Assembly: GCA_943788175.1 (NCBI GenBank)
Contig: CALSPG010000005.1
Coordinates: 288,001-352,000, forward strand
DNA from: an uncultured bacterium
GTDB taxonomy: Bacteria; Fidelibacterota; Marinisomatia; Marinisomatales; UBA1611
Direction of reading: 5' to 3'
DNA: 64,000 bases
In this document: in pieces, positions 2,887 through 55,930 of the stretch
Numbering within the stretch: the stretch's first letter is position 1
How the letters are laid out: each line of letters begins with the position of its first letter
The notes under the pieces: model-generated
The model's database searches: none
What the model was told of the DNA's origin: nothing
Seen by the model: the letters and a program-made list of their open reading frames with translations, nothing else
Position numbers and translations under genes: made by a program

Positions 2887-4173
2887 TTAATCTTGGTCTA
2901 AATGTGTGATAAGCTCTTCGCCCATAATATGACGGAGGGTATTTTTCAGCTTTGCTAGCTGAACAAATATATCATGTTCAGGACCAACATTAGGCCTAGT
3001 CATTGGACTTTTGAAGTAAAAGGATAGCCATTCTTGCACACCAAACATATTAGATTTTTTAGCTAAATCAAGAAATAAAACTAAATCTAAAACTATTGGA
3101 GCCGCTAAAATACTATCTCGACATAGAAAATCAACTTTGATTTGCATAGGGTATCCAAGCCAACCAAATATATCAATATTGTCCCAACCTTCTTTATCGT
3201 CTCCTCTTGGAGGGTAATAATTAATTCTCACTTTATGATAAAGGTCACTATAAAGATCAGGATTTTTTTCTGGTTCTAATATTGTGTCTAGTACACCAAG
3301 TTTACTTTCTTCTTTTGTTTTGAAAGCATCGGGGTCATCCAAGACTTCACCATCCCTGTTACCAAGAATATTAGTTGAGAACCAGCCATTTATTCCAAGT
3401 TGTCTAGCTTTCAAGCCTGGAGCTAATATGGTTTTCATTAGAGTTTGCCCAGTCTTAAAGTCTTTTCCCGCAATTGGAGTTTTTGTGGTTTCAGCTAATT
3501 CGACTAATGCTGGGATATCTGCAGATAAATTTGGTGCGCCATTTGCAAATGGAATACCTAGTTTGATAGCAGCATATGCATATATCATGCTTGGAGATAT
3601 AGCCGGACTATCATTTCGAAGGCCTTCCTCAAATTTATTAATAGATGAGTGAACATCAGATGGCTCAAAATATATTTCTGTGCTTCCACACCAAATCATC
3701 ACGTTAGATGTAATATTATTCTTTTCATTAAATGATTTTATATCATTCATTACTTGTTCAGCCAAGTCCATTTTGGAAGTTCCTGTTTTTATCCAGTTTC
3801 CATCTAAACGACGAACATACTCTTTATCGAAAACAGCTTTAAAAACATTGATATTTTCAAGCTCTGGCTTTAATTGATCTAAAAGAGTTTTGTCTAATAC
3901 TTTAGAGCGGATGCTAACATCGTAAACATTCTCGTTACTTATATCCCAACCGCCAAAAACTAGATTATTCATATCAGCAACAGGTGCAAAATCTTTAATA
4001 ATTGGAGAGCGTTTTTCAGATCTTTTTCCTAACCGGATTGAACCCATTTGGGTCATACTTCCGATTGGTTTTGATAATCCTTTATTACAAGCTAAAACAC
4101 CACAAATAAATGTGCTGGCAACTGCTCCCATTCCTGGAATTAATACTCCGACTTTTGGATTTTCATTGTTCAT
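2887..4173 (-). CDS. ino1: myo-inositol-1-phosphate synthase
   Basis: GMGAVAST, FGGWD, ANGAPN, GKDFKTGQT, NILGNRDG, RDSILAAP motifs. Confidence 0.93.
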   Translation of the reverse strand: MNNENPKVGVLIPGMGAVASTFICGVLACNKGLSKPIGSMTQMGSIRLGKRSEKRSPIIKDFAPVADMNNLVFGGWDISNENVYDVSIRSKVLDKTLLDQLKPELENINVFKAVFDKEYVRRLDGNWIKTGTSKMDLAEQVMNDIKSFNEKNNITSNVMIWCGSTEIYFEPSDVHSSINKFEEGLRNDSPAISPSMIYAYAAIKLGIPFANGAPNLSADIPALVELAETTKTPIAGKDFKTGQTLMKTILAPGLKARQLGINGWFSTNILGNRDGEVLDDPDAFKTKEESKLGVLDTILEPEKNPDLYSDLYHKVRINYYPPRGDDKEGWDNIDIFGWLGYPMQIKVDFLCRDSILAAPIVLDLVLFLDLAKKSNMFGVQEWLSFYFKSPMTRPNVGPEHDIFVQLAKLKNTLRHIMGEELITHLDQD

Positions 4174-44066: not shown

Positions 44067-44285
44067 ATGGAAATAAGAATAGTTGAATTATTAAATGAAA
44101 TAAGAACTCTAATACTTGGCAAGGTAAATGAGAGATGGTTGAATCTCAGAGATGTATCTGAATACACATCTGTTTCAGAAAGTACAATTCGTAGGGCAAT
44201 CAAAAAAGGTGTCCTTAAATCATCAAACAAAACGGGAAGATTACTTTTTAAAGTATCTGATGTTGATAGGTGGCTGAACTCATAA
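44067..44285 (+). CDS. Excisionase/AlpA-like helix-turn-helix protein
   Basis: WLNLRDVSEYTSVSESTIRRAIKKG.L...GRLLF..SDVDRWL. Confidence 0.82.
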   Translation: MEIRIVELLNEIRTLILGKVNERWLNLRDVSEYTSVSESTIRRAIKKGVLKSSNKTGRLLFKVSDVDRWLNS

Positions 44286-46206
44286 TGGATTACACCCATA
44301 TCTTTGAAAGAGACTTCAAATAGAAGTTAATAAGCGAAGTGGGATTCAATGGCAAGGTAGATGTCCATTACCAAGCCACGAAGATAGAAAAGCATCCTTT
44401 TCTTGGAATATAGATAACGGACTATGGAAATGTCACGGGTGCTTTGAATCGGGGAATGCTTATCAATTAGCAGAAATATTAGGTATAGCAAACCCATCCC
44501 AATATATAGAAAAAGAAACGGGGGGATATAGGAACAACCCCCCTCCAATACAGAAAGTTAATGTAATGAGTAGTGAAGAACTCGATGCACTTAAAAAAAA
44601 GTATCACTCAAATCTAACTGAACAAGATACCACATTTACCAATCCATATACAATACACGGAAGACGGGATGATGGGAATTTAGTTTTCTTTCTACCCGAT
44701 GCAATTAAGCATCACAAGTCTCAACCATATTGGGAGGGCAACAATAAGAAGTGTCAAATATTTGGTAGTGAATATCTTGCTGAGATAGATGCGAATGATA
44801 CTCTATACATATTCGAGGGAGAAAAAGAAGTATGTTACTCTCCATACAAGGGAATCAGTTTCACGGCTGGTGCTGGAAATGTTCCCGAAGACTTATCTCA
44901 ATTATACGCCTATAAAGATATTTGCATCATTCCCGATAATGATGATGCTGGATATAAGGGTGCTGATAAATGGGCAAAGGTCTGTTCAAGTAAATGGGGT
45001 GCATCCGTAAGGATTGCACAATGGGATGAGACACTCCCAAAAGGTTACGATGTGTATGATGATTATGTCCGTTCAACAAATGGAGATGAAGATTACATAT
45101 TTGATGAAACCGATAAGGCAATCAGCAAAGCAATCCCCTTTAAAGAAAATAACCACAAAACTGAAATTGGAGGTTTCAATACAATGGCAATAAACAACTA
45201 CATACAAACATATCAAGATGAAGAAGTAAGTCATATCATAGATGGATTATTAGTTAAAGGAGGTGTGACAATCCTTGCTGGTTCTGATGGAGTTGGTAAG
45301 TCTTGGTTAGGTTTACAAATGGGATTCTGTATCTCAAATGGAAATGAGTTCTTAGGTTGGGAAACAAAGAAGATGCCCGTTCTGCTTATTCAATTTGAAT
45401 TAGGTACGGCTCAACTGAAAGATAGATTACAGATACTATCTAAATCCTATGATATGAATACTGATTTCAATGTGGTAGACCTATCAGATGAAGACCTCAT
45501 CTTTACAGATGCTTGGGATAAGATAGAACAGACTATTGATAATCAATCTTTTACGGATGGAGTTATCATTGTAGATAATCTATATGCAAGTACTGATAAG
45601 GATGTATCTCAAAATCACGAACTCAAACCTATCTTAAAAAAGATAAGAAAGTTGTGTGTGGAGTATGACAATGCTTTTGTCTTGATTGCTCATCACAATA
45701 AGAACGAAAAAGATGATGAGCCGATCCTGACAAAAAAACTGATAACGGGAGGGAAGACACTTACAAATTTCCCCAACAATGTTATTCAAGTTGGCAGTAG
45801 CAGTTTAGGTAATGACATCTTTAGAGGCAAGATTACAAAGATAAGAGATAAAGGTAGTGATTTAATAAACATTCCTTTTATCCTCAACTTTGACCAAGAC
45901 ACTTGTGTTTTTTCAAGGGGTGTAATCATTGTATCTGAGATACTTCATTGCCAACCCATTAAAAAGAGATGGGAATATGAATTGCTTATAGACTTCCTTG
46001 CCTATCAATCTAATGAGGCGTTTACTCGTTCAAGGTTATGGCAATTCCTATCTACAAAAGACGGATGGGAAAAGACTCCATCAAATCAAACTAAGGTTAC
46101 AAGGTTTCTAAGTAGAATGAAAACTTGGGGATTCATTATAGAGCGTGAATACAATCTGTATGAATTAAGCCTTGAAGATATAAGGAGGCTGGAAGAAGAA
46201 AGATGA
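44285..46206 (+). CDS. Primase-helicase: CHC2 zinc finger + Toprim + AAA (RepA/AAA_25-like); frameshift near 44320
   Basis: In frame upstream of 44566: CPLPSHEDRKASF...WKCHGC; EGEKE and PDNDDAG Toprim; GSDGVGKS Walker A; IIVDN, AHHNK. Confidence 0.82.
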
Positions 46207-46662
46207 TTTACGGGGGGTGAATATAGTGTTTAAGTGTTCATCTTAGGTGCTTATGTATTCCCCTCTCAAATGAACAGATAAACAGACTTAACCATACATA
46301 GCAAGAGGATTTAAAGATAATGGAATATAAAGTAATGGACTTTCAAAAATATACAGACTACTTAGGTGATAGGTGGGATGATACTATTGAAATGGGAAAG
46401 TTTGATACCTATGAAATGGCATTGGAATCGAATGAGTATCATTGAGCAAGACCTTGCAAACGGGTAAGAATGGATTGCCTAAAGATAGTACTTTAGAACT
46501 AATTCAATTCGTAACAGAGTCACATCATACGGGTGGTAATAAGTCTTAATGAAGATGGCTGGATTGTGGTACTACACAAACCCGATATTGTTACAGATGT
46601 TACAAATGTTACAGATGGCTCAGAAGTAGGTACTCAAGCACACGCTGAACAGGAGGTAAACT

Positions 46663-47058
46663 AGGGCTATCTCTCACTCAGAACAGAGAGACATCGACTT
46701 GTCAAAACTTGACATTGAAGATGATATTTTCCCCCCTAAAAAAGGTGCAGATGAGGATAGTAACTCCCCCAATTTTGGCAGAGGTCAGCATCCTAATTCA
46801 AAGAAGAATCTGAAGCCATTATGAGAAAGGTGTTAGTGGTAATCCATCGGGTAAACCAAAAAAGGTAGCACAATTAAAAGAGGTCTTAGATTGGTGGGGT
46901 AGGCTTAACTGAATATGATAATTGGTCTTGGGATAAATACACCAATAGAGCAAATGGTAGTCAAAGGTATATGGAAAAGAGCAACCTCATGGTAATAGAC
47001 AAGACTTAGATATTTGCTATCACTTGGATTACTTGATTCAGACAAGTTTAAAGACTAA
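46663..47058 (+). pseudogene. Degraded small-terminase-like (DUF5681-type) gene
   Basis: GRGQHPNSKKNLKP / YEKGVSGNPSGKPK across a frameshift; AGGAGG RBS at 46651 before a non-ATG codon; further indels downstream. Confidence 0.55.
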
Positions 47059-47200
47059 TTTAGGAACGCTTAAATCAACATGTTAAATATACCTAAATAC
47101 AATTCCCCCTATGAGATGTGGTCAGCAGTAATGCCCCAAACGATTTCAACATGTTATCGTAAGCCATCTTTGGGGGGATGTAGGTAATAGGAGTCAGCAT

Positions 47201-48316
47201 ATGGCTACATATATAAAACAAAGAAAACGTCAGTACTCATCCCGTATTCAATGGAGAGACTGAGAATGGTAATAAGAGAGAACGAAAAATACCTCTTAAA
47301 ACTTCTTCTAAATCTGTTGCAGTAGTCAGAAACAATGAAGTAACGAAAGTTGAAGATACTATTATCGATGGAGATAATTGGTCTTTTGCTTGGATGAATG
47401 ATGATGGTAAAAGTTAAACTAATTAGATTATCTATTAGCGAGGCTTATGAAGAATATAGGATTGTCCAAAACATAGATGGAGTGAGAGCGTCTACGCTCG
47501 ATCGAGTTGATAACTCTATGAAGACACTATATAAAGTCTTTGGAGAGAACTATCCAATAGCATCATTAACATACTCGCATATAGAACAATTCAAAGAGTA
47601 TTGGCACGGAACACATCAACCAACTACAATGAATATTAATCTATCAAAGATTAAAGCGTTTCATAATTGGTGTCTTAAAAAAAGATATACTATAAAAGAT
47701 GTAGAGTTTAAGATGGTTAAGGAAGATGAAAAGCCTCCACAATATCTAACAGATGCTGAGTTTAAAAGCATAATGAAATGTGATATAATAGATGACCATT
47801 TCAAGAAAGCATTTGTATTCTATTTGTATACGGGTTGTAGAAAAACAGAACCATTTATTGCAGACTTAAATGGTAATTGGCTTACAATCAAATCAACAGA
47901 TGCTAAGTCTCACAGAACTCGTGATATTGAATTAAATGAAGTAACTAAGGGCATAGTTCAAGATATGAGAGATAGGTATCATTACTATATGGATGAATAT
48001 GCACAGAAACCAAGAAATGTGATTATGAACTATGGTAAGCAGTTCAAAAAGGCTTGTAGATACTTAGGTATCAAGGGCAAGACCTTACATTCATTGAGAC
48101 ATACTTATGCAGTTAGACGCTGGGCAATCACGGGAGACATTAAGATGGTATCTCAAGAGATTGGTCATAGTCTCAGTAGTGATGACAGAGAAGTATGCTA
48201 AGTTCAATCTTAGAAAGTTAAGAGATGATTTCCCCTCATTAAAAGAGCGTATCAATCTTAGACTTACTCCACCAAGTGAAGACTCATATTTTACTACGCT
48301 TTTAAATGCTATTTAG
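47201..48316 (+). CDS. Tyrosine recombinase/integrase, three frameshifts (~47261, ~47410, ~48172)
   Basis: YTGCRKTE (R), HSLRHTYA (HxxR), GHS / MTEKYA (H, Y) across frames; AGGAG RBS before ATG 47201; next to the att repeat. Confidence 0.88.
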
Positions 48317-48415
48317 AGGCATAAAATGGCAAAGAGGACACGTTTTGGAGGATACACCTAATAGACCTAAAATGCTAAGTGTAGTAATATATGTAGTTAG
48401 GAGTTAAAAACGCTG

Positions 48416-48650
48416 AGAGCGTTGCCCTTACAAGGCAGATGTCGGGAGTTCGAATCTCTCAACGCCCACTCCTCAGAAACCCTCGTTTATTGACGGGGGT
48501 TTTTGTTTTTCTACAAGTCTGTCAAAGTCGTCATTCCTTATCATTGTATGACATTTATAATAGGAACTTTGGAGGCTACCAAGCCCTAATTCAATTACTT
48601 ATTTCAACCAAAGTAGGGGGGCATACCCCGTTTGATAGGTCGGTAGGTAT
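48416..48650 (+). repeat. Right att copy plus ~180-bp extended direct repeat of 38450-38688
   Basis: Partial tRNA copy, terminator and downstream sequence, including a 36-bp identical block (38641-38676 = 48604-48639). Confidence 0.9.
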
Positions 48651-48714
48651 CTTTGATTTAAAATTTTATGTTTTTATTGAAAAGAACTATCGGAAGAAAT
48701 AACTATAAATGTAA

Positions 48715-48759
48715 ATATTTTGAGGTTCAAACTTTGAATAAATTCAAACCTCAAAATAT
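48715..48759 (-). terminator. Inverted repeat downstream of the cold-shock gene
   Basis: atattttgaggtt...aacctcaaaatat, 13-bp perfect arms. Confidence 0.5.
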
Positions 48760-48789
48760 CATTTTTAATAAAAAAGTTACTAGAGTAGT

Positions 48790-49002
48790 CTATTTAGGTA
48801 CTACGTTTGTTGCGCAAGGACCTTTATCAGAAGAACCTTCTTCATAATCAACTTCCTGCCCGTCTCTTAAGGTTTTGTACCCATCCATTTGAATCTCATT
48901 CATATGAACAAATAAGTCTTTATCACCATCTTTTGGTGCTATAAATCCAAATCCTTTTTTATCATTGAACCATTTTACGGTTCCTTCTTTTACATCACTC
49001 AT
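48790..49002 (-). CDS. Cold-shock protein (CspA family)
   Basis: GTVKWFN..KGFGFI, DLFVH, KGP.A.NV. Confidence 0.95.
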
Positions 49003-49159
49003 TTTATTATTTTCCTACTTTTGTTTATTTATTCAATTATTACTTATTTAATTGAATACTGCAATTTAATACTGTTATTACATAAATAAATTTAATTATT
49101 ATTTAAGTCTATAAAAAAATATATTGCATAGTTTAATCACATTATCACAATTTTTGATA

Positions 49160-49483
49160 ATGAAAAAATCGATAAATAAATTCATTTTAACTGGGATAGC
49201 TCTTTTATTTTTTAGCTCGATTTTTCATTTAGATCATACTCCGGCGCACGAGCATCAAAATGGATACAACATATGCAATATAGGATGTAAGGATATTGAG
49301 CATCATTCTTATTCTCATCAATGTGAAAAGTGTTTAAGCAAAACCCAAAGATATGTAAGTGTAAATCTTTTTGATTTATCACTTCATAACAACTCAACAT
49401 CATTTGACAATCCTAAAGACATTACTTTTTCTAAATTCATAAATTTTAATTCAAATAAAAGAGCCCCACCCATTATCCTTTAG
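49160..49483 (+). CDS. His/Cys-rich leader protein ending in RAPP (DUF2946-like), copy 1
   Basis: N-terminal hydrophobic helix, HxH, GYNICNIGC-x4-HH-x5-CEKC, KRAPPIIL*. Confidence 0.75.
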   Translation: MKKSINKFILTGIALLFFSSIFHLDHTPAHEHQNGYNICNIGCKDIEHHSYSHQCEKCLSKTQRYVSVNLFDLSLHNNSTSFDNPKDITFSKFINFNSNKRAPPIIL

Positions 49484-49673
49484 ATTTTATTAAAGGAGCA
49501 ACAGTTTCAGTAAAAATACATTTTGTATGCAATGAGTGCATGCCAGTTTCGTATTTGTCGTAAACATCTATCATCAATTTTTCAGTAATGATTATAATTG
49601 AATTATGATTGAGAAATTTGATGCTCCTAAATCTTTGTTCAAAAATATCTTTTGAAAATCATAAAGGAAACAA

Positions 49674-50087
49674 ATGATGTTAAATTCAATAAATATTTCG
49701 ATAAAAAATATTAAAGTAGATAGTCTTGGCGCTTTGGTAAGCGGCTTATGCATGTTGCATTGTCTTGCAACGCCAATCTTTTTTATTGCTTCAGCTTGTT
49801 CAGCAGCATGTTGTAACTTTGCTCCAACTTGGTGGCAATCATTAGATTATATTTTTCTAGTTATTTCTCTTTTTGCTGTAATCCAAGCATCTAGAAATTC
49901 AAATAGTTCATTGGTTCCTAGGGGGCTACTAGCTAGTTGGTTAGGGTTAGGTTTTTTTATATTGAACGCTAAGTTTGGTTGGATTAGCGTTCATCAGAAT
50001 ATTAAGTTTATTCCTGCGTTTCTTCTTATTGGATTTCATCTATACAATATGAAGTACTGTCAATGTGAGAGCAATGAATGTTGCTAA
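49674..50087 (+). CDS. MerC domain-containing membrane protein
   Basis: DSLG..VS.LC.LHCLATP, several TM helices, Cys-rich tail. Confidence 0.8.
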   Translation: MMLNSINISIKNIKVDSLGALVSGLCMLHCLATPIFFIASACSAACCNFAPTWWQSLDYIFLVISLFAVIQASRNSNSSLVPRGLLASWLGLGFFILNAKFGWISVHQNIKFIPAFLLIGFHLYNMKYCQCESNECC

Positions 50088-50121
50088 ATTATTTAATGTT
50101 TTTTTAATGAGAGGATGAAGA

Positions 50122-50370
50122 ATGAAAGAAAATGAATTTCCACTTCTAAAGATTACAAATATTGATTGGGATCCAGATCATGAAGAATTTGAAAAATTAC
50201 CCAAAAAATTAGAGCTTAAATGGGATAAAAAAAATTGGACCATCGATGATGTTTCAAACTGGTTAAGTCTTGAATTTGACTGGGTTTTTAACAGTCTTAA
50301 TATTAATCAAGTTGGAATTTGGGAGAATGGTGGTTGTAGTTGCTGCGCTGGCGGATGTAGTTGCTGCTAA
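50122..50370 (+). CDS. Small protein with Cys-rich tail
   Basis: GAGG RBS; C-terminus GGCSCCAGGCSCC. Confidence 0.6.
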   Translation: MKENEFPLLKITNIDWDPDHEEFEKLPKKLELKWDKKNWTIDDVSNWLSLEFDWVFNSLNINQVGIWENGGCSCCAGGCSCC

Positions 50371-50374
50371 ATTT

Positions 50375-52603
50375 TTAAATACGAAACCTGTAATTAATAT
50401 TGAATCCTAGCCCGGGTTCAGGCATTATCATTTTAATTTTAGATAAATGATTATAATAGGTTTCATTTAATATATTAGATACTTGAAATATTAATTGATG
50501 CATGCTATTATTTTTACTAAAAGTATACGTACAGTTATAATTAAAAAGTTTGTATCCATTTGTTGGCGTTTCAAACTCACCAAGTTTATCTTGATTAGAA
50601 ACTAACAAAAATTCAAAAGTGTTATTTAAAAACAGAATATTTTTTTCTATTTGAAATCGAATCAAATCTGGAGGAATGTATGCCAGTGACATATCGTTCT
50701 GTAAATCTAAACCTCGACATATTGAGGCATTTCCTAATAGGTTAAAATATTTTAGATTAATCTTAAAATTTGGCTCAAACCCATAAATCAAGGTTTCAAG
50801 GCCAAATATTTTATATTTATATAACCAACCTGAAGACCCACTACCCCACTCAATCCAATCGGCCCCAGTTTCGTAACCATCTCCCATTTTTTGAAAAATG
50901 TGAAAATTAGAGCTATAGTTTATATAACTGGTAAGATTGAATTCATTTTTATCATTAAAAAAAGAAAAAGTATTTTCAAATCCTAATGTATTCTCCTGAT
51001 CAAGCTTTGGTTCGCCAATCTCATACGAATAGCTTCCTAGATGGGGACCATCAGAATATAGATCTTCGATTTTTGGAGCGCGGCTTGTGTACAGAATATG
51101 ATTGTATATTGAATAATTTTTTCTCTTATTTAGTGCTGATATACCAAAAGAAAACAATATAAAATCACGTTTTTTTACATCTTCGGGTTCAATATTAGAA
51201 AAGAAAGTATCTTCAACACTAGGGTTGATTGATCGGTATTCAATCCTTCCAGAAAATTGCAATTTAAGGTTATCATACTTTCTATTATTTATGCCAAATA
51301 CAGCTAATTTTGTTTCATTGGAATTTGGAGTCCATATAAAACCGCGTGTAAGGTAGTCTCTATTTTGATAGTTAATACCAATTTTTAATGTTTCTCCGCT
51401 CAGTAAAGCATTCAAATAAATAATATTTTGTCTCAAATCAACAGATGCATAATTAGCATCCTTAACAAATTCCTTGTGCCCATATCTAATGTATCCTTGT
51501 TCAATATCTAAAATATTAAATGAAAAAAGTTTAATATCGCTGTGATACATTAATTTTTGGCTTTGATTTTTTAGTTCTAAGTCAACTCCATTAATATGTC
51601 CCTCTGGACTTCCTGGGATTCCATAATCCATTGAAAAATCTTTTATTTGAAGGGAAGTGAAATTTTTGGCACCAAACTTTGTTACAGCTATTGAAAGGTC
51701 GTTTTTTATTAATGCTGTATTTTTTAGAGAACCCAAGGGAGAAGATTGATCATTAGATTTTCTATTAGTTATTGACGTAAAAAGTTGATAGGTGTTTAAT
51801 GGAATACTAATATTTGTTCCTAAAAGCTTTGACTGGTTCGAGCTCTCATGTCCAAAAAATACATTATATAAAGCTCGTTCTATCTTTTTTTGACTATTCA
51901 TTGGAGATAGTATGTTAATTATACCAGCAATAGTGTTTGACCCATAGGCTAAGGTCTCTGGTCCTCGCATTACTTCTATACCTTCTGCAGAAGAAATTTC
52001 CATGCTCACCGCGTGGTCGGCAGTAGTGTTAGATAAATCACCAAGTTCAAAACCATCAGAGGTAATTAGGAATCTATCCCCTGAGTATCCTCTTAGAATA
52101 GGTCTTTGGGTTGCTTGCCCGGATGATCTCATCGCAACACCAGACTCCCCAGTAAGAGTGGTCGCAAGGTCGCTATTAATGTTTTTTTTCAATCTACTAC
52201 CAATCATCGATATTGAAGATGGGGCTTTATTCTTATTGCTCTCTTCATGTGAATGGACTGTTACTCCGCTCATTTGGATTGTTTTAGGAGTCAAAAAAAC
52301 TTTGTATTTATTCTTTATATTTTTGTGACTTACAAATAAGGTTGTATCCTTGAACCCAATCATCGAAATCTTTATTTCATTTTTCTTTAAATTATCTAAA
52401 GAGAGTGAAAAAGTTCCTAATTCACTGGAGACTGTACCAAGATCACTATCTACAATATAAACATTAGCACCAGATATAGGTTTCAGATTACTATTGTCAA
52501 ATATTACTCCTTTAATTGATGCTACTTCTTGAGCAGAAAGTGAGTTGATAAAAAATAGAGCTATATATAGAGGTAGATAACGCACGAAAAGAAGGAGTAT
52601 CAT
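50375..52603 (-). CDS. TonB-dependent receptor, ZnuD-like metal uptake type
   Basis: RPILRG..GDR, ADHAVS, RGP..L.YGSN.IAGIIN plug; RAP...LYSDGPH; NILN..Y.NHLS. Confidence 0.85.
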   Translation of the reverse strand: MILLLFVRYLPLYIALFFINSLSAQEVASIKGVIFDNSNLKPISGANVYIVDSDLGTVSSELGTFSLSLDNLKKNEIKISMIGFKDTTLFVSHKNIKNKYKVFLTPKTIQMSGVTVHSHEESNKNKAPSSISMIGSRLKKNINSDLATTLTGESGVAMRSSGQATQRPILRGYSGDRFLITSDGFELGDLSNTTADHAVSMEISSAEGIEVMRGPETLAYGSNTIAGIINILSPMNSQKKIERALYNVFFGHESSNQSKLLGTNISIPLNTYQLFTSITNRKSNDQSSPLGSLKNTALIKNDLSIAVTKFGAKNFTSLQIKDFSMDYGIPGSPEGHINGVDLELKNQSQKLMYHSDIKLFSFNILDIEQGYIRYGHKEFVKDANYASVDLRQNIIYLNALLSGETLKIGINYQNRDYLTRGFIWTPNSNETKLAVFGINNRKYDNLKLQFSGRIEYRSINPSVEDTFFSNIEPEDVKKRDFILFSFGISALNKRKNYSIYNHILYTSRAPKIEDLYSDGPHLGSYSYEIGEPKLDQENTLGFENTFSFFNDKNEFNLTSYINYSSNFHIFQKMGDGYETGADWIEWGSGSSGWLYKYKIFGLETLIYGFEPNFKINLKYFNLLGNASICRGLDLQNDMSLAYIPPDLIRFQIEKNILFLNNTFEFLLVSNQDKLGEFETPTNGYKLFNYNCTYTFSKNNSMHQLIFQVSNILNETYYNHLSKIKMIMPEPGLGFNINYRFRI

Positions 52604-52644
52604 AAAAAAACTAAAAGCTGCCCAGACATTGATCTAGGCAGCTT
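52604..52644 (-). terminator. Hairpin plus T-tract between lipoprotein and TonB receptor
   Basis: Minus strand aagctgcctaga-tcaatg-tctgggcagctt then ttagttttttt. Confidence 0.6.
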
Positions 52645-52662
52645 CTTGTCTAATTACTACGA

Positions 52663-53188
52663 TTAATTAACAGTTACTGTTACGTTATTTGTAGAGGTGT
52701 AGTCTGCATGACCATCGTGCATTAATTGGATTTGAAAGCTAGTGCTTCCTGAGCTCACCCCAATAATGTGTAAAGCAGCTCCATGTTCTTCTTCATGATC
52801 ATGATCGTGGCTCTTCTTCTTCATGTTCTACTTCGACTATAGCAATACTTGCATCAGAACCAGATACCTCGAGTTCGCCTTCTTCGTGTCCTTCTTCCTC
52901 TTCTTCTTCCTCATCATGTTCAATTTCATTTCCATCATGATCAAGAAAATGGACAGATAATTCAAGAGTGTCGCCGACACTTAAAGCGACAGAACCAGTT
53001 ACGGCGCCTTCAAACTCTCTATAAACTTCAGTTCCGCTTTCATTCTCTAAAATGAAACCATCTGCATCGGTATGTCCGTCATCGTTGTTATCATGGTCGT
53101 CGTCTTCACAACCAGTTATAAATAACATGGCACATGTAAGTGAAAAAATAGTATACGCTTTTAATGAACGTAAGAATAGTGTTTGCAT
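52663..53188 (-). CDS. His/Glu-rich metal-binding lipoprotein, frameshift at ~52810
   Basis: ITGC lipobox; HDEEEEEEGHEE; shifted frame continues HDHDHEEEHG...LMHDGHADY...TVN*. Confidence 0.72.
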
Positions 53189-53254
53189 AAAATGCTCCTT
53201 TAAAATTTTAAAATAGAATTGTACTAATTTATTAGTACGAGTGTAATACTGTTT

Positions 53255-53602
53255 TTAGTTAAAGGATGAGGGGGGTGCCCTTGAGGGGATATTTAATTGG
53301 TTTAAAAGATTTTTGAAAACATGCTCATCAAAATAATACGAATTTTTTGTTTTTACATAGGTATTGATTTTATATGTGTCATTATATATTTTCTGGTTAT
53401 TCTGATTTCTTGTACACTTATCGCAATCAGCCTTTAAAACATGGTGATCTGATGAGTTACATTCAGGGTTACAGATACTGTATCCTTCTTCTTTTGTGTG
53501 GTCATGCTCAGAAATATGAAGACTACCAGAAAGGAGTAGAAATGATAACGTAATTTGGCAAAGTCCTTGCAAGATGTTTTTTATGTTATTTTTCTTATGC
53601 AT
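53255..53602 (-). CDS. His/Cys-rich leader protein ending in RAPP (DUF2946-like), copy 2
   Basis: Hydrophobic helix, HDH, GYSICNPEC-x4-HH-x5-CDKC, SRAPPSSFN*. Confidence 0.75.
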   Translation of the reverse strand: MHKKNNIKNILQGLCQITLSFLLLSGSLHISEHDHTKEEGYSICNPECNSSDHHVLKADCDKCTRNQNNQKIYNDTYKINTYVKTKNSYYFDEHVFKNLLNQLNIPSRAPPSSFN

Positions 53603-53690
53603 AAAAAGAGAGAACTAATTTAGTAATTAATACAAATAGAGTTACTATTCAAATTTTCACATTATAAAAATTAATTGCATTGTTTTAATA

Positions 53691-53715
53691 ATTGATATTG
53701 AGACTAAATATCAAT
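53691..53715. promoter_or_regulatory. Fur-box-like inverted repeat
   Basis: attgatatt-gagacta-aatatcaat, perfect 9-7-9 inverted repeat between divergent flavodoxin and metal-uptake genes. Confidence 0.5.
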
Positions 53716-53858
53716 ATGTGTATATTCACCTATTGGTTATTAAAATACAAAAATAAAAACAAATGGGTTCTGTTCTAAATTATAAGTAATACTTAAAATT
53801 GGTTCCAAAACTATGAATGGGACCCGTTTTGTTTTTTTAAATATTTAAAGGATAAAAA

Positions 53859-54374
53859 ATGGAAAAAATAGGTTTATTTTGGGGTAGTAATACTGGGAAT
53901 CAAGAAGAAGCGACAAACTTTCTTGCTGATTATTTAAAGTCATAACGCTGTCAGTTAGATTTGTATAATATTGTTGATACACCACCTTCAAAAATGTTGG
54001 AATATAAAAAACTATTAGTAGGTTGTCCGACTTGGCACATTGGGGAACTGCAAGACGATTGGGATGCAATATACGAAGAGTATAAAAAATTAGATTTTTC
54101 AAATGTTAAAGCTGCTTTTTTTGGATGCGGAGATTAAGTAGGCTACAGCGATAATTTCTTAGATGCTATCGGATTACTCGCGAAACCTTTTATTGGTAAT
54201 GGTGGAACATTAATTGGTCGTTGGCCAACAGAGGGTTATGAATTTGAGCATTCCTTAGCTTTAGATGGCGATGATTTTCTTGGTCTTGGATTGGATAATG
54301 ATAATGAAGAAGAATTAACAGAAGAGCGTTTAATTATTTGGGCTGAATTAATTAGAGATGAATTCGAATCATAG
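53859..54374 (+). pseudogene. fldA: Long-chain flavodoxin with two in-frame TAA stops (53943, 54135)
   Basis: MEKIGLFWGSNTGN, GCPTWHIGELQDDW, FGCGD*VGYSDNF.DA.G, GRWPTEGYEF, FLGLGLD. Confidence 0.88.
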
Positions 54375-54526
54375 CCAGCATATTTAAACCTCCTTTAAAC
54401 AAATCTTTTAATTACTCTTCATTAAAATGCTCTTTTAAAGAGTTAAGATTATAATATTTAGAAATGGGAAATATCATTATTCGTTAACCTTTTTGTGGCT
54501 TTTTTCTTTTTACGGTATATTCGACA

Positions 54527-55930
54527 ATGCGCCAATATGATCTGAAGAAATTTTATCCTTTAATACTAATATTTGTTTTTTGGTTTTTAAAACCACCTGA
54601 AGAATTAGATATAAATGGCTATCGCGTGTTTATCGTTTTTGTTTCTGTCATTTTTTCGATTTTATTGCAATCTATTCCGACAGCGGTGAGTGTCCTAACC
54701 GGTTTAACTTTTTCTGTTTTAACCGGATTAATGCCTTTAAAGTCTGCTTTGAAAGGCTATAGTGATTCAACAACATGGCTTGTCGTAATTGCATTTTTGA
54801 TTGCTGGTGCAATAATTAACTCAGGACTAGGTAACAGAATATCCCTTCTAAGTATATATTATCTTGGCCGGTCTATCACTGGTTTAGGTTATGCTATATG
54901 TTGTGCTGAGCTTATTTTAGGGCCAGTTGTGCCTTCAAATACAGCAAGGGGAGGTGGTATATTGGCACCAATCGTTGACTCGATTTCAAGGACGCTAGGA
55001 TCTTCACCAAATAGTAACCCTCGAAAAGCAGGGCAGTATCTCAATCTAGTTGGAGCTCACGCAAACTTAATCACGGCTGCTATGTTTTTGACTGGAATGG
55101 CAGCAAATCCTCTAGTATCCAGAGCAGCCTTAGAGGTTTTTGAAATTGAATTTGGCTGGCTAAAATGGGCGTTAGGAGCTATAGTCCCAGGACTAATTGG
55201 GTTAGCTGGGTTACCATTATTAATGAAGTATTTGTCTCCTCCAAGTATTGAATCAATCGAACCAGTTCGGATTAGAATAAATAAAGAGCTCCAAACGCTT
55301 GGTTCTTGGACTAGAGCTGAGATAATCACTGGAATTATAATGGTTCTGATGGTTTTTTTATGGTTGAGTAAAAGTTTTCATGGCTTTGGTACTACGATAG
55401 TAGCTCTAAGTGGACTTATGTTGATTCTATTTTTCAAAGTAGTCTCCTGGGATAACATGGTAAAAAATCATAAAGCCTGGGATACTCTAATCTGGCTAGG
55501 CGGACTATTAACGATAGCAACAAGTTTAAAAGAAGCTGGGTTTATTTTTTGGTTTTCTGGAATACTTGAAAATAGTTTATTAGATTTTTCTCCAATTTTA
55601 ATCACACTATCCTTAGCACTTATTTATTTCTATTCAATGTATTTATTTTCAATGTTAACAGCTCATATTGTTGCATTATCTGGTGCAATGTTTTTAATTG
55701 TACATAACTTGGGGTTTGAACCAATAATTATAATCTGTTTAATTGCATATTTTTCTAACTTGAGTGGTTGTCTAACTAATTATTCAACTGGGCCAATGAT
55801 TATTTATTTTGGGAATGGCTATGTCATGCCATCTGCATGGTTTAAGATTGGATTTATAGTTTCAATATACCACATAGTTGTCTGGCTTGGTATTGGTTCT
55901 ATCTGGTGGAAATTTCTTGGCTGGTGGTAA
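54527..55930 (+). CDS. DASS family anion transporter (2-oxoglutarate/malate translocator-like)
   Basis: SGLG.RI, PSNTARGGGI, MFLTGMAANP, AWDTLIW, WWKFLGWW. Confidence 0.9.
   Translation: MRQYDLKKFYPLILIFVFWFLKPPEELDINGYRVFIVFVSVIFSILLQSIPTAVSVLTGLTFSVLTGLMPLKSALKGYSDSTTWLVVIAFLIAGAIINSGLGNRISLLSIYYLGRSITGLGYAICCAELILGPVVPSNTARGGGILAPIVDSISRTLGSSPNSNPRKAGQYLNLVGAHANLITAAMFLTGMAANPLVSRAALEVFEIEFGWLKWALGAIVPGLIGLAGLPLLMKYLSPPSIESIEPVRIRINKELQTLGSWTRAEIITGIIMVLMVFLWLSKSFHGFGTTIVALSGLMLILFFKVVSWDNMVKNHKAWDTLIWLGGLLTIATSLKEAGFIFWFSGILENSLLDFSPILITLSLALIYFYSMYLFSMLTAHIVALSGAMFLIVHNLGFEPIIIICLIAYFSNLSGCLTNYSTGPMIIYFGNGYVMPSAWFKIGFIVSIYHIVVWLGIGSIWWKFLGWW

Follow-up and report, generated by a model that had tools for sequence, protein, structure and literature searches.

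The closest described systems are two nascent-chain sensors of copper, CruR and CutF, both carrying the DUF2946 domain (PF11162). CruR (Bp2923 of Bordetella pertussis), as reported in PMC9426467, is an exported protein in which a CxxC motif is located 45 residues before a RAPP motif, itself three residues from the C-terminus. It heads the operon of a TonB transporter; copper relieves the arrest, after which Rho terminates transcription (the intergenic region is of 162 bp), and regulation needs both the motif and the CxxC spacing (PMC9426467). The arrest was toeprinted with codons three and four of the motif in the P and A sites of the ribosome (PMC12992588). In CutF from Rhodobacter capsulatus, copper induces a stall at a PPP motif, which opens a stem-loop hiding the next gene's Shine-Dalgarno (SD) sequence, and disulfide formation in the metal-free state was proposed to release the stall (bioRxiv 10.1101/2025.02.05.636593). 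Arrest peptides of the RAPP type also include ApdA, ApdP, ApcA and SecM, described as monitors of Sec/YidC activity that precede sec/yidC genes (PMC12992588; PMC10951233; PMC7897499). Moreover, a 2025 survey of 52,895 genomes reports RAPP/RGPP small open reading frames (ORFs) upstream of TonB- or metal-related genes across Gram-negative phyla (PMC12992588). The principle is already published (CruR 2022; CutF 2022-2025). Here we analyse a stretch of 64,000 nucleotides (hereafter the window) from an uncultured bacterium of the Fidelibacterota (contig CALSPG010000005.1, positions 288,001 to 352,000), in which two ORFs, leaders A and B, each head an operon of metal-transport genes. Together with a third copy found elsewhere in the genome (leader C), and by analogy with CruR and CutF, they are probably regulatory leader peptides acting as nascent-chain metal sensors. 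What is new is the family, which belongs to the Marinimicrobia (SAR406), RPPP as its usual core, an extended Cys/His sensor, a probable link to zinc and a triplicated leader on a split operon.

Leaders A and B are encoded on opposite strands, and their operons converge, with stops 4 nt apart. The two proteins align by BLASTP with 29% identity over 86 residues (E=3e-7) and have in common, in the same order, M-K-K, a hydrophobic segment, H23/H30, GYxICNxxC, HH, CxKC and RAPP; they are paralogues. Both consist of an N-terminal hydrophobic helix, a His cluster, a Cx3C-x4-HH-x5-CxxC segment, a non-conserved spacer and RAPP. The sensor segment reads GYNICNIGC-KDIE-HH-SYSHQ-CEKC in leader A and GYSICNPEC-NSSD-HH-VLKAD-CDKC in leader B. 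The initial annotation, made from the sequence, had described the two ORFs with this order of helix, His, Cys and RAPP, spacers of 42 and 44 residues and a motif lying 3-4 codons before the stop, all of which stands (3 codons and 42 residues in A, 4 codons and 44 residues in B). It had counted two copies, used twice; there are in fact three. Searching the genome (2.27 Mb in 12 contigs, 92% complete) with a profile recovers leader C on contig C2 (genome G000, 3125-3445, minus strand), which also has a CxxC motif, ends with RPPP-NLS and precedes an ABC ATPase and a DUF3526/ABC-2 permease. Among the 5244 six-frame ORFs of at least 50 residues in this genome, R[AGPSD]PP occurs anywhere in 12 and within the last 12 residues in four, three of which are the paralogous leaders, and zero ORFs of at least 150 residues carry RAPP, RGPP, RPPP or RSPP. 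The pattern of the leaders is therefore beyond chance. In an AF2 model of leader A computed with 89 sequences (overall pLDDT 62), helix 2-22 alone is confident (pLDDT about 90), the remainder being disordered. In one RNA-library contig of run X4, the C6 run coding for both Pro residues of the leader B RAPP contains an additional G/C (53266, minus strand); this single contig has a depth of 7, and the difference may be an error or the variant of a relative.

A hidden Markov model (HMM) built from the two ORFs, a step proposed in the initial annotation, does retrieve a family. A word-indexed search gave 19 close relatives, and an exhaustive search with the profile (E<=1e-3) returned 103 representatives at 50% identity, 58 of them with E<=1e-10. 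The leader profile matches 26 of 61 related genomes, including 22 of the 36 within the window's own family, and, in a sample of the whole phylum, 31 of 201 genomes, from 18 of 78 genera. Further loci were sought with a degenerate DNA pattern for HxCEKCLNK, which hit 15 loci, 10 with an ORF of the family and 5 without, the latter being chance matches. The records that carry the family are metagenome-assembled genomes of Candidatus Marinimicrobia/Neomarinimicrobiota or are labelled 'uncultured bacterium', plus one 502-nt contig binned as an archaeon; apart from this contig, Marinimicrobia (SAR406) is the only phylum named, and the nearest Atlas cluster is assigned to Fidelibacterota. More than two leader copies per genome are found only in the present genome, the others searched having at most two. 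Two leaders also occur within single loci: at 530-850 and 1542-1862 of L050 (G033), in the order leader, lipoprotein, second leader, TonB receptor, and at 583-897 and 3745-4071 of L056 (G028), in the order leader, lipoprotein, receptor, second leader at the contig end. Literature searches found no published work on this SAR406 leader family, on arrest peptides of Marinimicrobia or on DUF3526, and those on upstream ORFs linked to zinc and TonB found copper papers only. The main text of the 2025 survey does not mention Marinimicrobia, Marinisomatota, Fidelibacterota or zinc (PMC12992588). Its upstream ORFs, as described there, resemble the present leaders: they encode small exported proteins that carry the motif towards the C-terminus, and they precede TonB- or metal-related genes. 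A search for RAPP and RGPP only, as the survey reports it, would miss the RPPP majority of the family.

In an alignment of 89 full-length members, a [R/K]xPP motif is located 1-8 residues from the C-terminus in all 89, and is followed by 3 or 4 residues in 77 of them. Its forms are RPPP (64 members), RAPP (18), RSPP (4), KSPP (2) and RGPP (1), so that Arg opens the motif in 87 members and the residue x is P in 64, A in 18, S in 6 and G in 1; RGPP, RDPP and KGPP also occur among the close relatives of leader A. CxxC is present in 79 members and lies 42-45 residues before the Arg in all of these (exactly 42 in 55). Hence, of the RAPP and spacer length for which the initial annotation had expected conservation, the spacer holds in 79 of 89 members and the motif holds in the wider form RxPP, RAPP itself being a minority and RPPP the rule. 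The consensus of the spacer is 'x' throughout, so its length is conserved and its sequence is not. Of the 79 members with CxxC, 64 also have a Cx3C motif, located 10-11 residues upstream of it; the sensor is Cx3C-x11-CxxC with a median of 6 His. At the N-terminus, the median Kyte-Doolittle value of the hydrophobic 15-mer is 2.1, and a net charge of +2 precedes it; hydropathy and charge are both those of an export signal or anchor in 66 of the 89 members. The most divergent member (L069, G054, 496-831) has CNENC and, at the position of CxxC, a single Cys; it terminates in RASP-SC.

The natural variation of the motif can be compared with experiments on unrelated arrest peptides. In the saturation mutagenesis of ApdA and ApdP, as reported in PMC12992588, Arg is irreplaceable, Ala-to-Gly is fully permissive and Ala-to-Ser, -Asp or -Pro are partly so, and earlier screens cited there recovered RxPP in which x is G, A, S or P. 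In Escherichia coli, RPPP is described as the strongest staller of the XPPP type and is under-represented (PMC4176338). The set of residues x found in the leader family (P, A, S, G, D) is the set permissive for RAPP-type arrest in the mutagenesis, and offers a useful independent check on those experiments. By analogy, we infer that the RxPP of the leaders acts as a ribosome arrest site. With ApdA, ApdP, ApcA and SecM the leaders share a C-terminal R-x-P-P core near the stop codon of a small exported product of an upstream ORF, the Arg being near-invariant; unlike these peptides, they carry a Cys/His site and precede metal-transport genes.

The genes downstream were tabulated for 30 distinct leaders with a readable downstream gene, 91 downstream proteins being scanned against Pfam. 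Transport genes follow all 30, in agreement with the link to metal transporters put forward by the initial annotation. The first gene encodes a His/Glu lipoprotein of about 170 residues, without Pfam family, after 22 leaders, an ABC ATPase after four, MerC after two, a TonB receptor directly after one, and, after the most divergent member (ending RASP), an unrelated protein of 343 residues, behind which come ZnuA and an ABC-3 permease; the latter operon also holds a DsrE-like protein. A Pfam-confirmed TonB receptor comes after 20 of the 22 lipoproteins (of the other two operons, one continues to ABC genes and one is cut by the contig end and was unscanned), which brings the operons with a receptor to 21 of 30. 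An ABC ATPase with a DUF3526 permease is present in 7 operons and MerC in 7. The order lipoprotein, receptor, ABC ATPase, DUF3526 permease, second permease is found in 4 operons, 3 of which add MerC, and one operon consists of leader, ABC, permease, permease, MerC and the 82-aa protein. Not in these tallies are the leaders of G030 and G019, where the first ORF downstream (164 aa in one and, open-ended, 156 aa in the other) resembles lipoprotein genes in size and spacing. Since relatives carry the same modules behind a single leader, the three operons of the present genome are the three modules of that one operon, each with its own leader.

In the window, a gene for MerC starts 190 nt after leader A and a lipoprotein gene starts 66 nt after leader B, the latter being followed by a TonB receptor. 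The initial annotation had read them as a MerC-domain gene and as a His/Glu-rich lipoprotein with a ZnuD-like receptor, which is confirmed (Table 1). The only strong solved relative of the receptor is ZnuD of Neisseria meningitidis (PDB 4rdr, E=4.3e-27; next best 2e-6); the match covers mainly the plug and the early barrel, and the N-terminal CarbopepD_reg_2 domain of the receptor is absent from ZnuD-type models. The lipoprotein gene is frameshifted in a GAA/GAG run near 52799-52824 (the position of the break is approximate), and an intact 176-aa orthologue exists in a genome of the same genus. Because two RNA-library contigs (X1 record 4 and X4 record 29) lack 1 nt relative to the window in this stretch, the break may be an assembly error or a strain variant. 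The AF2 model of the lipoprotein is an Ig-like beta-sandwich (pLDDT 78), with which a fold search returned generic Ig-like sandwiches only (S-layer and filamin domains) and nothing metal-specific. The 82-aa protein that follows MerC may be a cytoplasmic metal acceptor; its ORF is also found after MerC in L071 and L049.

A further level of organization is seen in the RNA. In the minimum free energy (MFE) fold of the region from the end of leader B to the lipoprotein start, AUCCUUUAA pairs with UUAAAGGAG of the lipoprotein gene (z=-2.53); the duplex of tail and SD has -8.2 kcal/mol, a strength equalled in 3 of 82 control gene pairs. From the end of leader A through merC, the MFE fold pairs AUUAUCCUUUAGAUUUU with the stretch around the merC SD (z=-2.19), the duplex having -12.2 kcal/mol, which 1% of dinucleotide shuffles reach. 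Across relatives, the commonest leader tail is CUC-CUU-UAG/UAA, the exact complement of the downstream UAAAGGAG. Duplex energies were computed between a 24-nt window of the tail and a 23-nt window of the SD and start codon at 26 loci, excluding duplicates, 3 loci of the ABC type, a locus containing Ns, another located at a contig end and an open-ended ORF. The energies average -7.9 kcal/mol, compared with -5.3 for dinucleotide-shuffled tails, and at 14 of the 26 loci no more than 10% of the shuffles match the energy. The control, made of 82 same-strand gene pairs of this genome, has a mean of -4.0 kcal/mol and a 5th percentile of -7.5; 17 of the 26 family loci are at or below the latter value, and seven reach -10.6 kcal/mol, as do none of the 82 controls. 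Tail and SD also vary together, CCUUUUG being found with CAAAAGG at two loci and CCUAUAA with UUAUAGG at one. At the 22 loci of the lipoprotein type, where the intergenic regions are short (63-84 nt), the helix formed by the anti-SD and the SD encloses a small hairpin. In this structure 83.6% of the cells are paired, compared with 40-52% when it is slid by 1-3 columns; out of 500 shuffles, none is as well paired, and within the inner hairpin each of the 7 pairs shows compensatory changes.

With the register of the CruR arrest, the anti-SD would be located at approximately +8 to +17 from the P-site codon. These positions fall inside the usual mRNA footprint of the ribosome, so that stalling should unmask translation of the downstream gene. 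The stall thus seems placed to disrupt the structure masking the start codon at lipoprotein-type loci. The distance of 3-4 codons between motif and stop would follow, because the anti-SD must fall in the mRNA channel of the arrested ribosome, and the same register may account for the conserved 'xLL' ending.

No cis-regulatory RNA of Rfam was found in 48000-54600 at E<=0.1, nor in four related loci, and a scan found no terminator-like site in the intergenic region of either leader, the covarying hairpin having no U-run behind it. In the search for a shared operator, by alignment of 5 regions upstream of leaders and 8-mer counts over 29, only A/T-rich words recur, and the palindromes upstream of leaders A and B differ. 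A conserved stretch of about 45 nt containing ...AAAATAGAA.AG..TACGTGAGTCTCATAACC..., without Rfam match, is present about 100-130 nt upstream of the leader in L048, L035, L044 and L039. Intergenic regions of the MerC and ABC types (49484-49560 in the window; L070, 3027-3124, minus strand; L049, 457-600) keep an SD-like UAAAGGAG or AAGAGA, together with an AUG and a short ORF resembling the first codons of the lipoprotein gene. These remnants of a lipoprotein-type SD and AUGCAA suggest that the leader was copied along with its intergenic region when the operon was split.

A mechanism can be proposed on this basis. The N-terminal signal-anchor helix would cause the chain to be threaded towards the periplasm during translation, and the ribosome would arrest at R-x-P-P while the P and A sites hold the third and fourth codons, respectively. 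At that moment CxxC would lie 42-45 residues behind, about the length of the exit tunnel plus the translocon, with the His/Cx3C part further out. The arrested ribosome would cover the next 3-4 codons and the stop (typically CUC-CUU-UAG), which are the complement of the downstream SD UAAAGGAG, and would thereby keep the downstream start open. Upon departure of the ribosome, the helix between anti-SD and SD would re-form over the small covarying hairpin and translation of the next gene would stop. Binding of a metal, most likely zinc, to the Cys/His site would release the arrest, so that the operons would be on under metal scarcity and off once the supply suffices. In relatives a single leader would control the operon of lipoprotein, TonB receptor, ABC-2 transporter, MerC and Cys-rich protein; the present genome would have cut this operon into three, with a leader copy retained on each piece.

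As to the metal sensed, zinc is our best guess. It is indicated by the ZnuD-like receptor, by the divergent member that heads a ZnuA/ABC-3 operon and by the ligand set of four Cys plus His. Neither ZnuA (PF01297) nor ZIP (PF02535) was found in this 92%-complete genome, which has two genes of the Fur family. Copper, nickel, cobalt and cadmium are possible as well.

Several observations weigh against the proposed mechanism. The case for zinc is circumstantial, the receptor scoring 122 bits against the ZnuD model NF038289, far under its cut-off of 950. In CutF the metal strengthens the stall, which makes the sign of the response uncertain. The expanded four-Cys site of the initial annotation holds for most CxxC members and is not universal: CxxC is absent from 10 of the 89 members and Cx3C is lacking in 15 of the 79 that have CxxC. 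The model of leader A has no compact metal-site fold. Complementarity between tail and SD is weak at 9 of the 26 loci, and the anti-SD helix is mostly conserved in sequence, with changes on both sides at 2 of 8 pairs only. The long-range pairing of leader A is not found in its same-genus orthologue, where the MerC-type intergenic fold has z=-0.4; the ABC-type fold has z=-1.3, SD pairing is consistent in neither, and in both types the tail can pair instead with the vestigial SD right after the stop. Owing to the terminator-like hairpin between the lipoprotein and receptor genes, which resembles an intrinsic terminator or an attenuator within the operon, the leader may not control the receptor directly. 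Finally, the locus is covered, at 90-100% identity, by metatranscriptome contigs from 4 runs of a single study, among them one of 4244 nt spanning both convergent operons; as they bridge convergent genes, DNA carry-over or merged transcripts are possible, and they demonstrate no transcript.

The relationship with CruR and CutF itself has to be weighed. Like CruR, the leaders are exported proteins of about 100-145 residues, by prediction, encoded by the first gene of a TonB-transporter operon, with CxxC about 45 residues before a C-terminal R-x-P-P located about 3 residues from the stop. They come from a different phylum, have an extra Cx3C and HH in the sensor, and have RPPP instead of RAPP in most cases; the intergenic region is short and carries an anti-SD, whereas CruR relies on Rho-dependent termination; the metal is likely zinc rather than copper; and the partners are a lipoprotein, ABC-2/DUF3526 proteins and MerC, as opposed to a PepSY_TM protein. 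With CutF they would share co-translational export of a nascent sensor, a C-terminal polyproline stall and the opening by this stall of an mRNA structure hiding the ribosome binding site; CutF, however, controls a detoxifying copper oxidase and is stalled by its metal. No sequence homology with either protein is detectable. PF11162 gives no match for leaders A and B at E<=1, none in the genome at E<=10, and none among the 89 members (E<=10) or the 201 genomes of the phylum. As a positive control, the same model was applied to 61 genomes of a proteobacterial order and finds, in 7 of them, 12 genes above its cut-off; ten of these, once aligned, end with RGPP and have CxxC 44-45 residues upstream. 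Comparison of the 89 family sequences with these 10 by hhalign gives a probability of 0.6% (E=0.099) over 12 columns around CxxC only, and reciprocal HMM searches do not exceed 8.4 bits. Thus, the family has the CxxC, the C-terminal RAPP-like motif, the spacing of about 45 residues, the export signal or anchor (by hydropathy) and the place at the head of a metal operon that characterize DUF2946 leaders, but neither the Pfam gathering score nor profile-level homology. The analogy therefore comes from architecture, which is a further point against the proposed function, and the family would work like CruR and CutF as a related design and a distinct family, as the initial annotation had suggested, and not as a demonstrated member of DUF2946. 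That the leaders are nevertheless very divergent true members, sharing descent with CruR and CutF, is close to an even question, on which we lean slightly to the negative. The identical order of parts argues for it, as do the ruler of 42-45 compared with 44-45 residues, the similar H...H..C-E-x-C-x-L context and the fact that the sole stretch aligned by hhalign is CxxC. The nearest Pfam-carrying Atlas cluster, 36% DUF2946, gives a lead in the same direction (score 0.95), but with 160 shared features this score is in a range compatible with chance, and the Pfam and profile results above speak against common descent. Independent evolution of a zinc-sensing nascent-chain switch that converged on the ruler of CruR and CutF, its three copies forming a purely translational zinc-acquisition regulon in SAR406, seems rather improbable. 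If it were true, the distance of 42-45 residues would be set by physics (the length of exit tunnel plus translocon) and not by ancestry, and the three leaders would coordinate zinc uptake at its outer-membrane, periplasmic and inner-membrane stages, which is the job of the Zur regulon elsewhere.

Other explanations keep the leaders and change what they do. The same arrest device could respond with the sign of CutF, the metal prolonging the stall and the operons being on in excess, for sequestration or detoxification rather than uptake. Most members end with RPPP, which contains the PPP of CutF, at which copper induces the stall; the four Cys could form two disulfides, and disulfide formation is proposed to release metal-free CutF; and the His/Glu lipoprotein and the Cys-rich protein could be metal sinks. 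ABC-2 transporters, in addition, are usually exporters. The core partners are nonetheless the TonB receptor, serving import through the outer membrane and present in 21 of 30 operons, and MerC, of an importer family; the divergent member heads ZnuA/ABC-3 uptake genes, and a canonical zinc importer (ZnuA or ZIP) was not found elsewhere in the genome. In CruR, which likewise precedes a TonB receptor, the metal relieves the arrest (PMC9426467). We consider a CutF-like response unlikely, and since the SAR406 operons are of the uptake type, the opposite sign is expected. It is also conceivable, if hardly favoured, that the leader acts mainly on transcription, the stalled ribosome blocking Rho or a terminator while SD masking is secondary or absent. 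This is how CruR works, and the 190-nt structured intergenic region of leader A, where SD pairing is not conserved, would suit such a mechanism, as would the terminator-like hairpin downstream of the lipoprotein gene. But the intergenic regions of lipoprotein-type loci are short (63-84 nt), the scan found no terminator-like site in those of leaders A and B, the covarying hairpin has no U-run, and the complementarity of tail and SD is well above genome background at lipoprotein-type loci. Lastly, the ORFs might encode secreted small metal-binding proteins, such as a periplasmic metallochaperone or a metallophore precursor, in which RxPP would be a structural or sorting feature. Cys/His-rich ligands with an export signal fit this idea, and CutF and CruR are exported too. 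Against such a role stand a spacer conserved in length and not in sequence, residues x that match the arrest-permissive set, the near absence of RxPP from the rest of the proteome and last codons that match the downstream SD; no fold is predicted past the N-terminal helix, and maturation enzymes were not found in the leader operons. It appears very improbable.

SAR406 bacteria (Marinimicrobia) are abundant in dark and oxygen-poor parts of the ocean, in which trace metals, zinc included, are scarce, and to our knowledge almost nothing is known about their gene regulation. If nascent-chain sensing by the leaders is correct, a cheap ribosome-based sensor, without regulatory protein, would govern their metal acquisition. 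The principle of CruR and CutF would be extended to a phylum and to a sequence family beyond the Pfam model, with an RPPP core and probably a second metal, and the present genome would offer a natural case of one leader copied as its operon was split. The ruler of 42-45 residues would also give a concrete handle on the reach that a nascent chain needs in order to sense the periplasm.

Table 1. Features of the two leader-headed operons of the window (positions in the window).
Feature	Position	Strand	Remarks
Leader A, 107 aa	49160..49483	+	42-residue spacer; ends RAPP-IIL-stop
R-A-P-P codons of leader A (AGA GCC CCA CCC)	49460..49471	+	predicted arrest site, read from sequence
Last three codons, stop and 5 nt of leader A	49472..49488	+	pyrimidine-rich; complementary to merC SD region 49654-49668
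Intergenic region A, 190 nt	49484..49673	+	SD-like UAAAGGAG just past the stop; AUGCAA remnant resembling lipoprotein-type leader region
MerC-family inner-membrane metal transporter, 137 aa	49674..50087	+	PF03203, E=2.5e-17, 63.8 bits (gathering cut-off 27.6)
82-aa protein	50122..50370	+	Cys-rich tail GGCSCCAGGCSCC; follows MerC; no Pfam match
TonB-dependent receptor, 742 aa	50375..52603	-	CarbopepD_reg_2, Plug and barrel; ZnuD-like
Terminator-like hairpin	52613..52646	-	15-bp G+C-rich hairpin, then U-run; between lipoprotein and receptor genes
His/Glu/Asp-rich lipoprotein gene	52663..53188	-	split into ORFs of 129 aa and 53 aa
SD of lipoprotein gene	53195..53202	-	UAAAGGAG
Intergenic hairpin between anti-SD and SD	53221..53238	-	all 7 pairs with compensatory changes across 22 loci
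S-S-F-N codons after leader B RAPP	53258..53269	-	AUCCUUUAA complementary to SD
R-A-P-P codons of leader B (AGG GCA CCC CCC)	53270..53281	-	predicted arrest site
Leader B, 115 aa	53255..53602	-	44-residue spacer; ends RAPP-SSFN-stop

Just upstream of a cold-shock gene and of leader A, the region 44067-48468 may be a small integrated element. As judged from the translations alone, it would encode an excisionase-like small protein, a 546-aa primase/helicase-like protein and a 267-aa integrase-like protein (47398-48201), and these ORFs are found beside a tRNA gene at 48399-48468 (Rfam, 29.1 bits).

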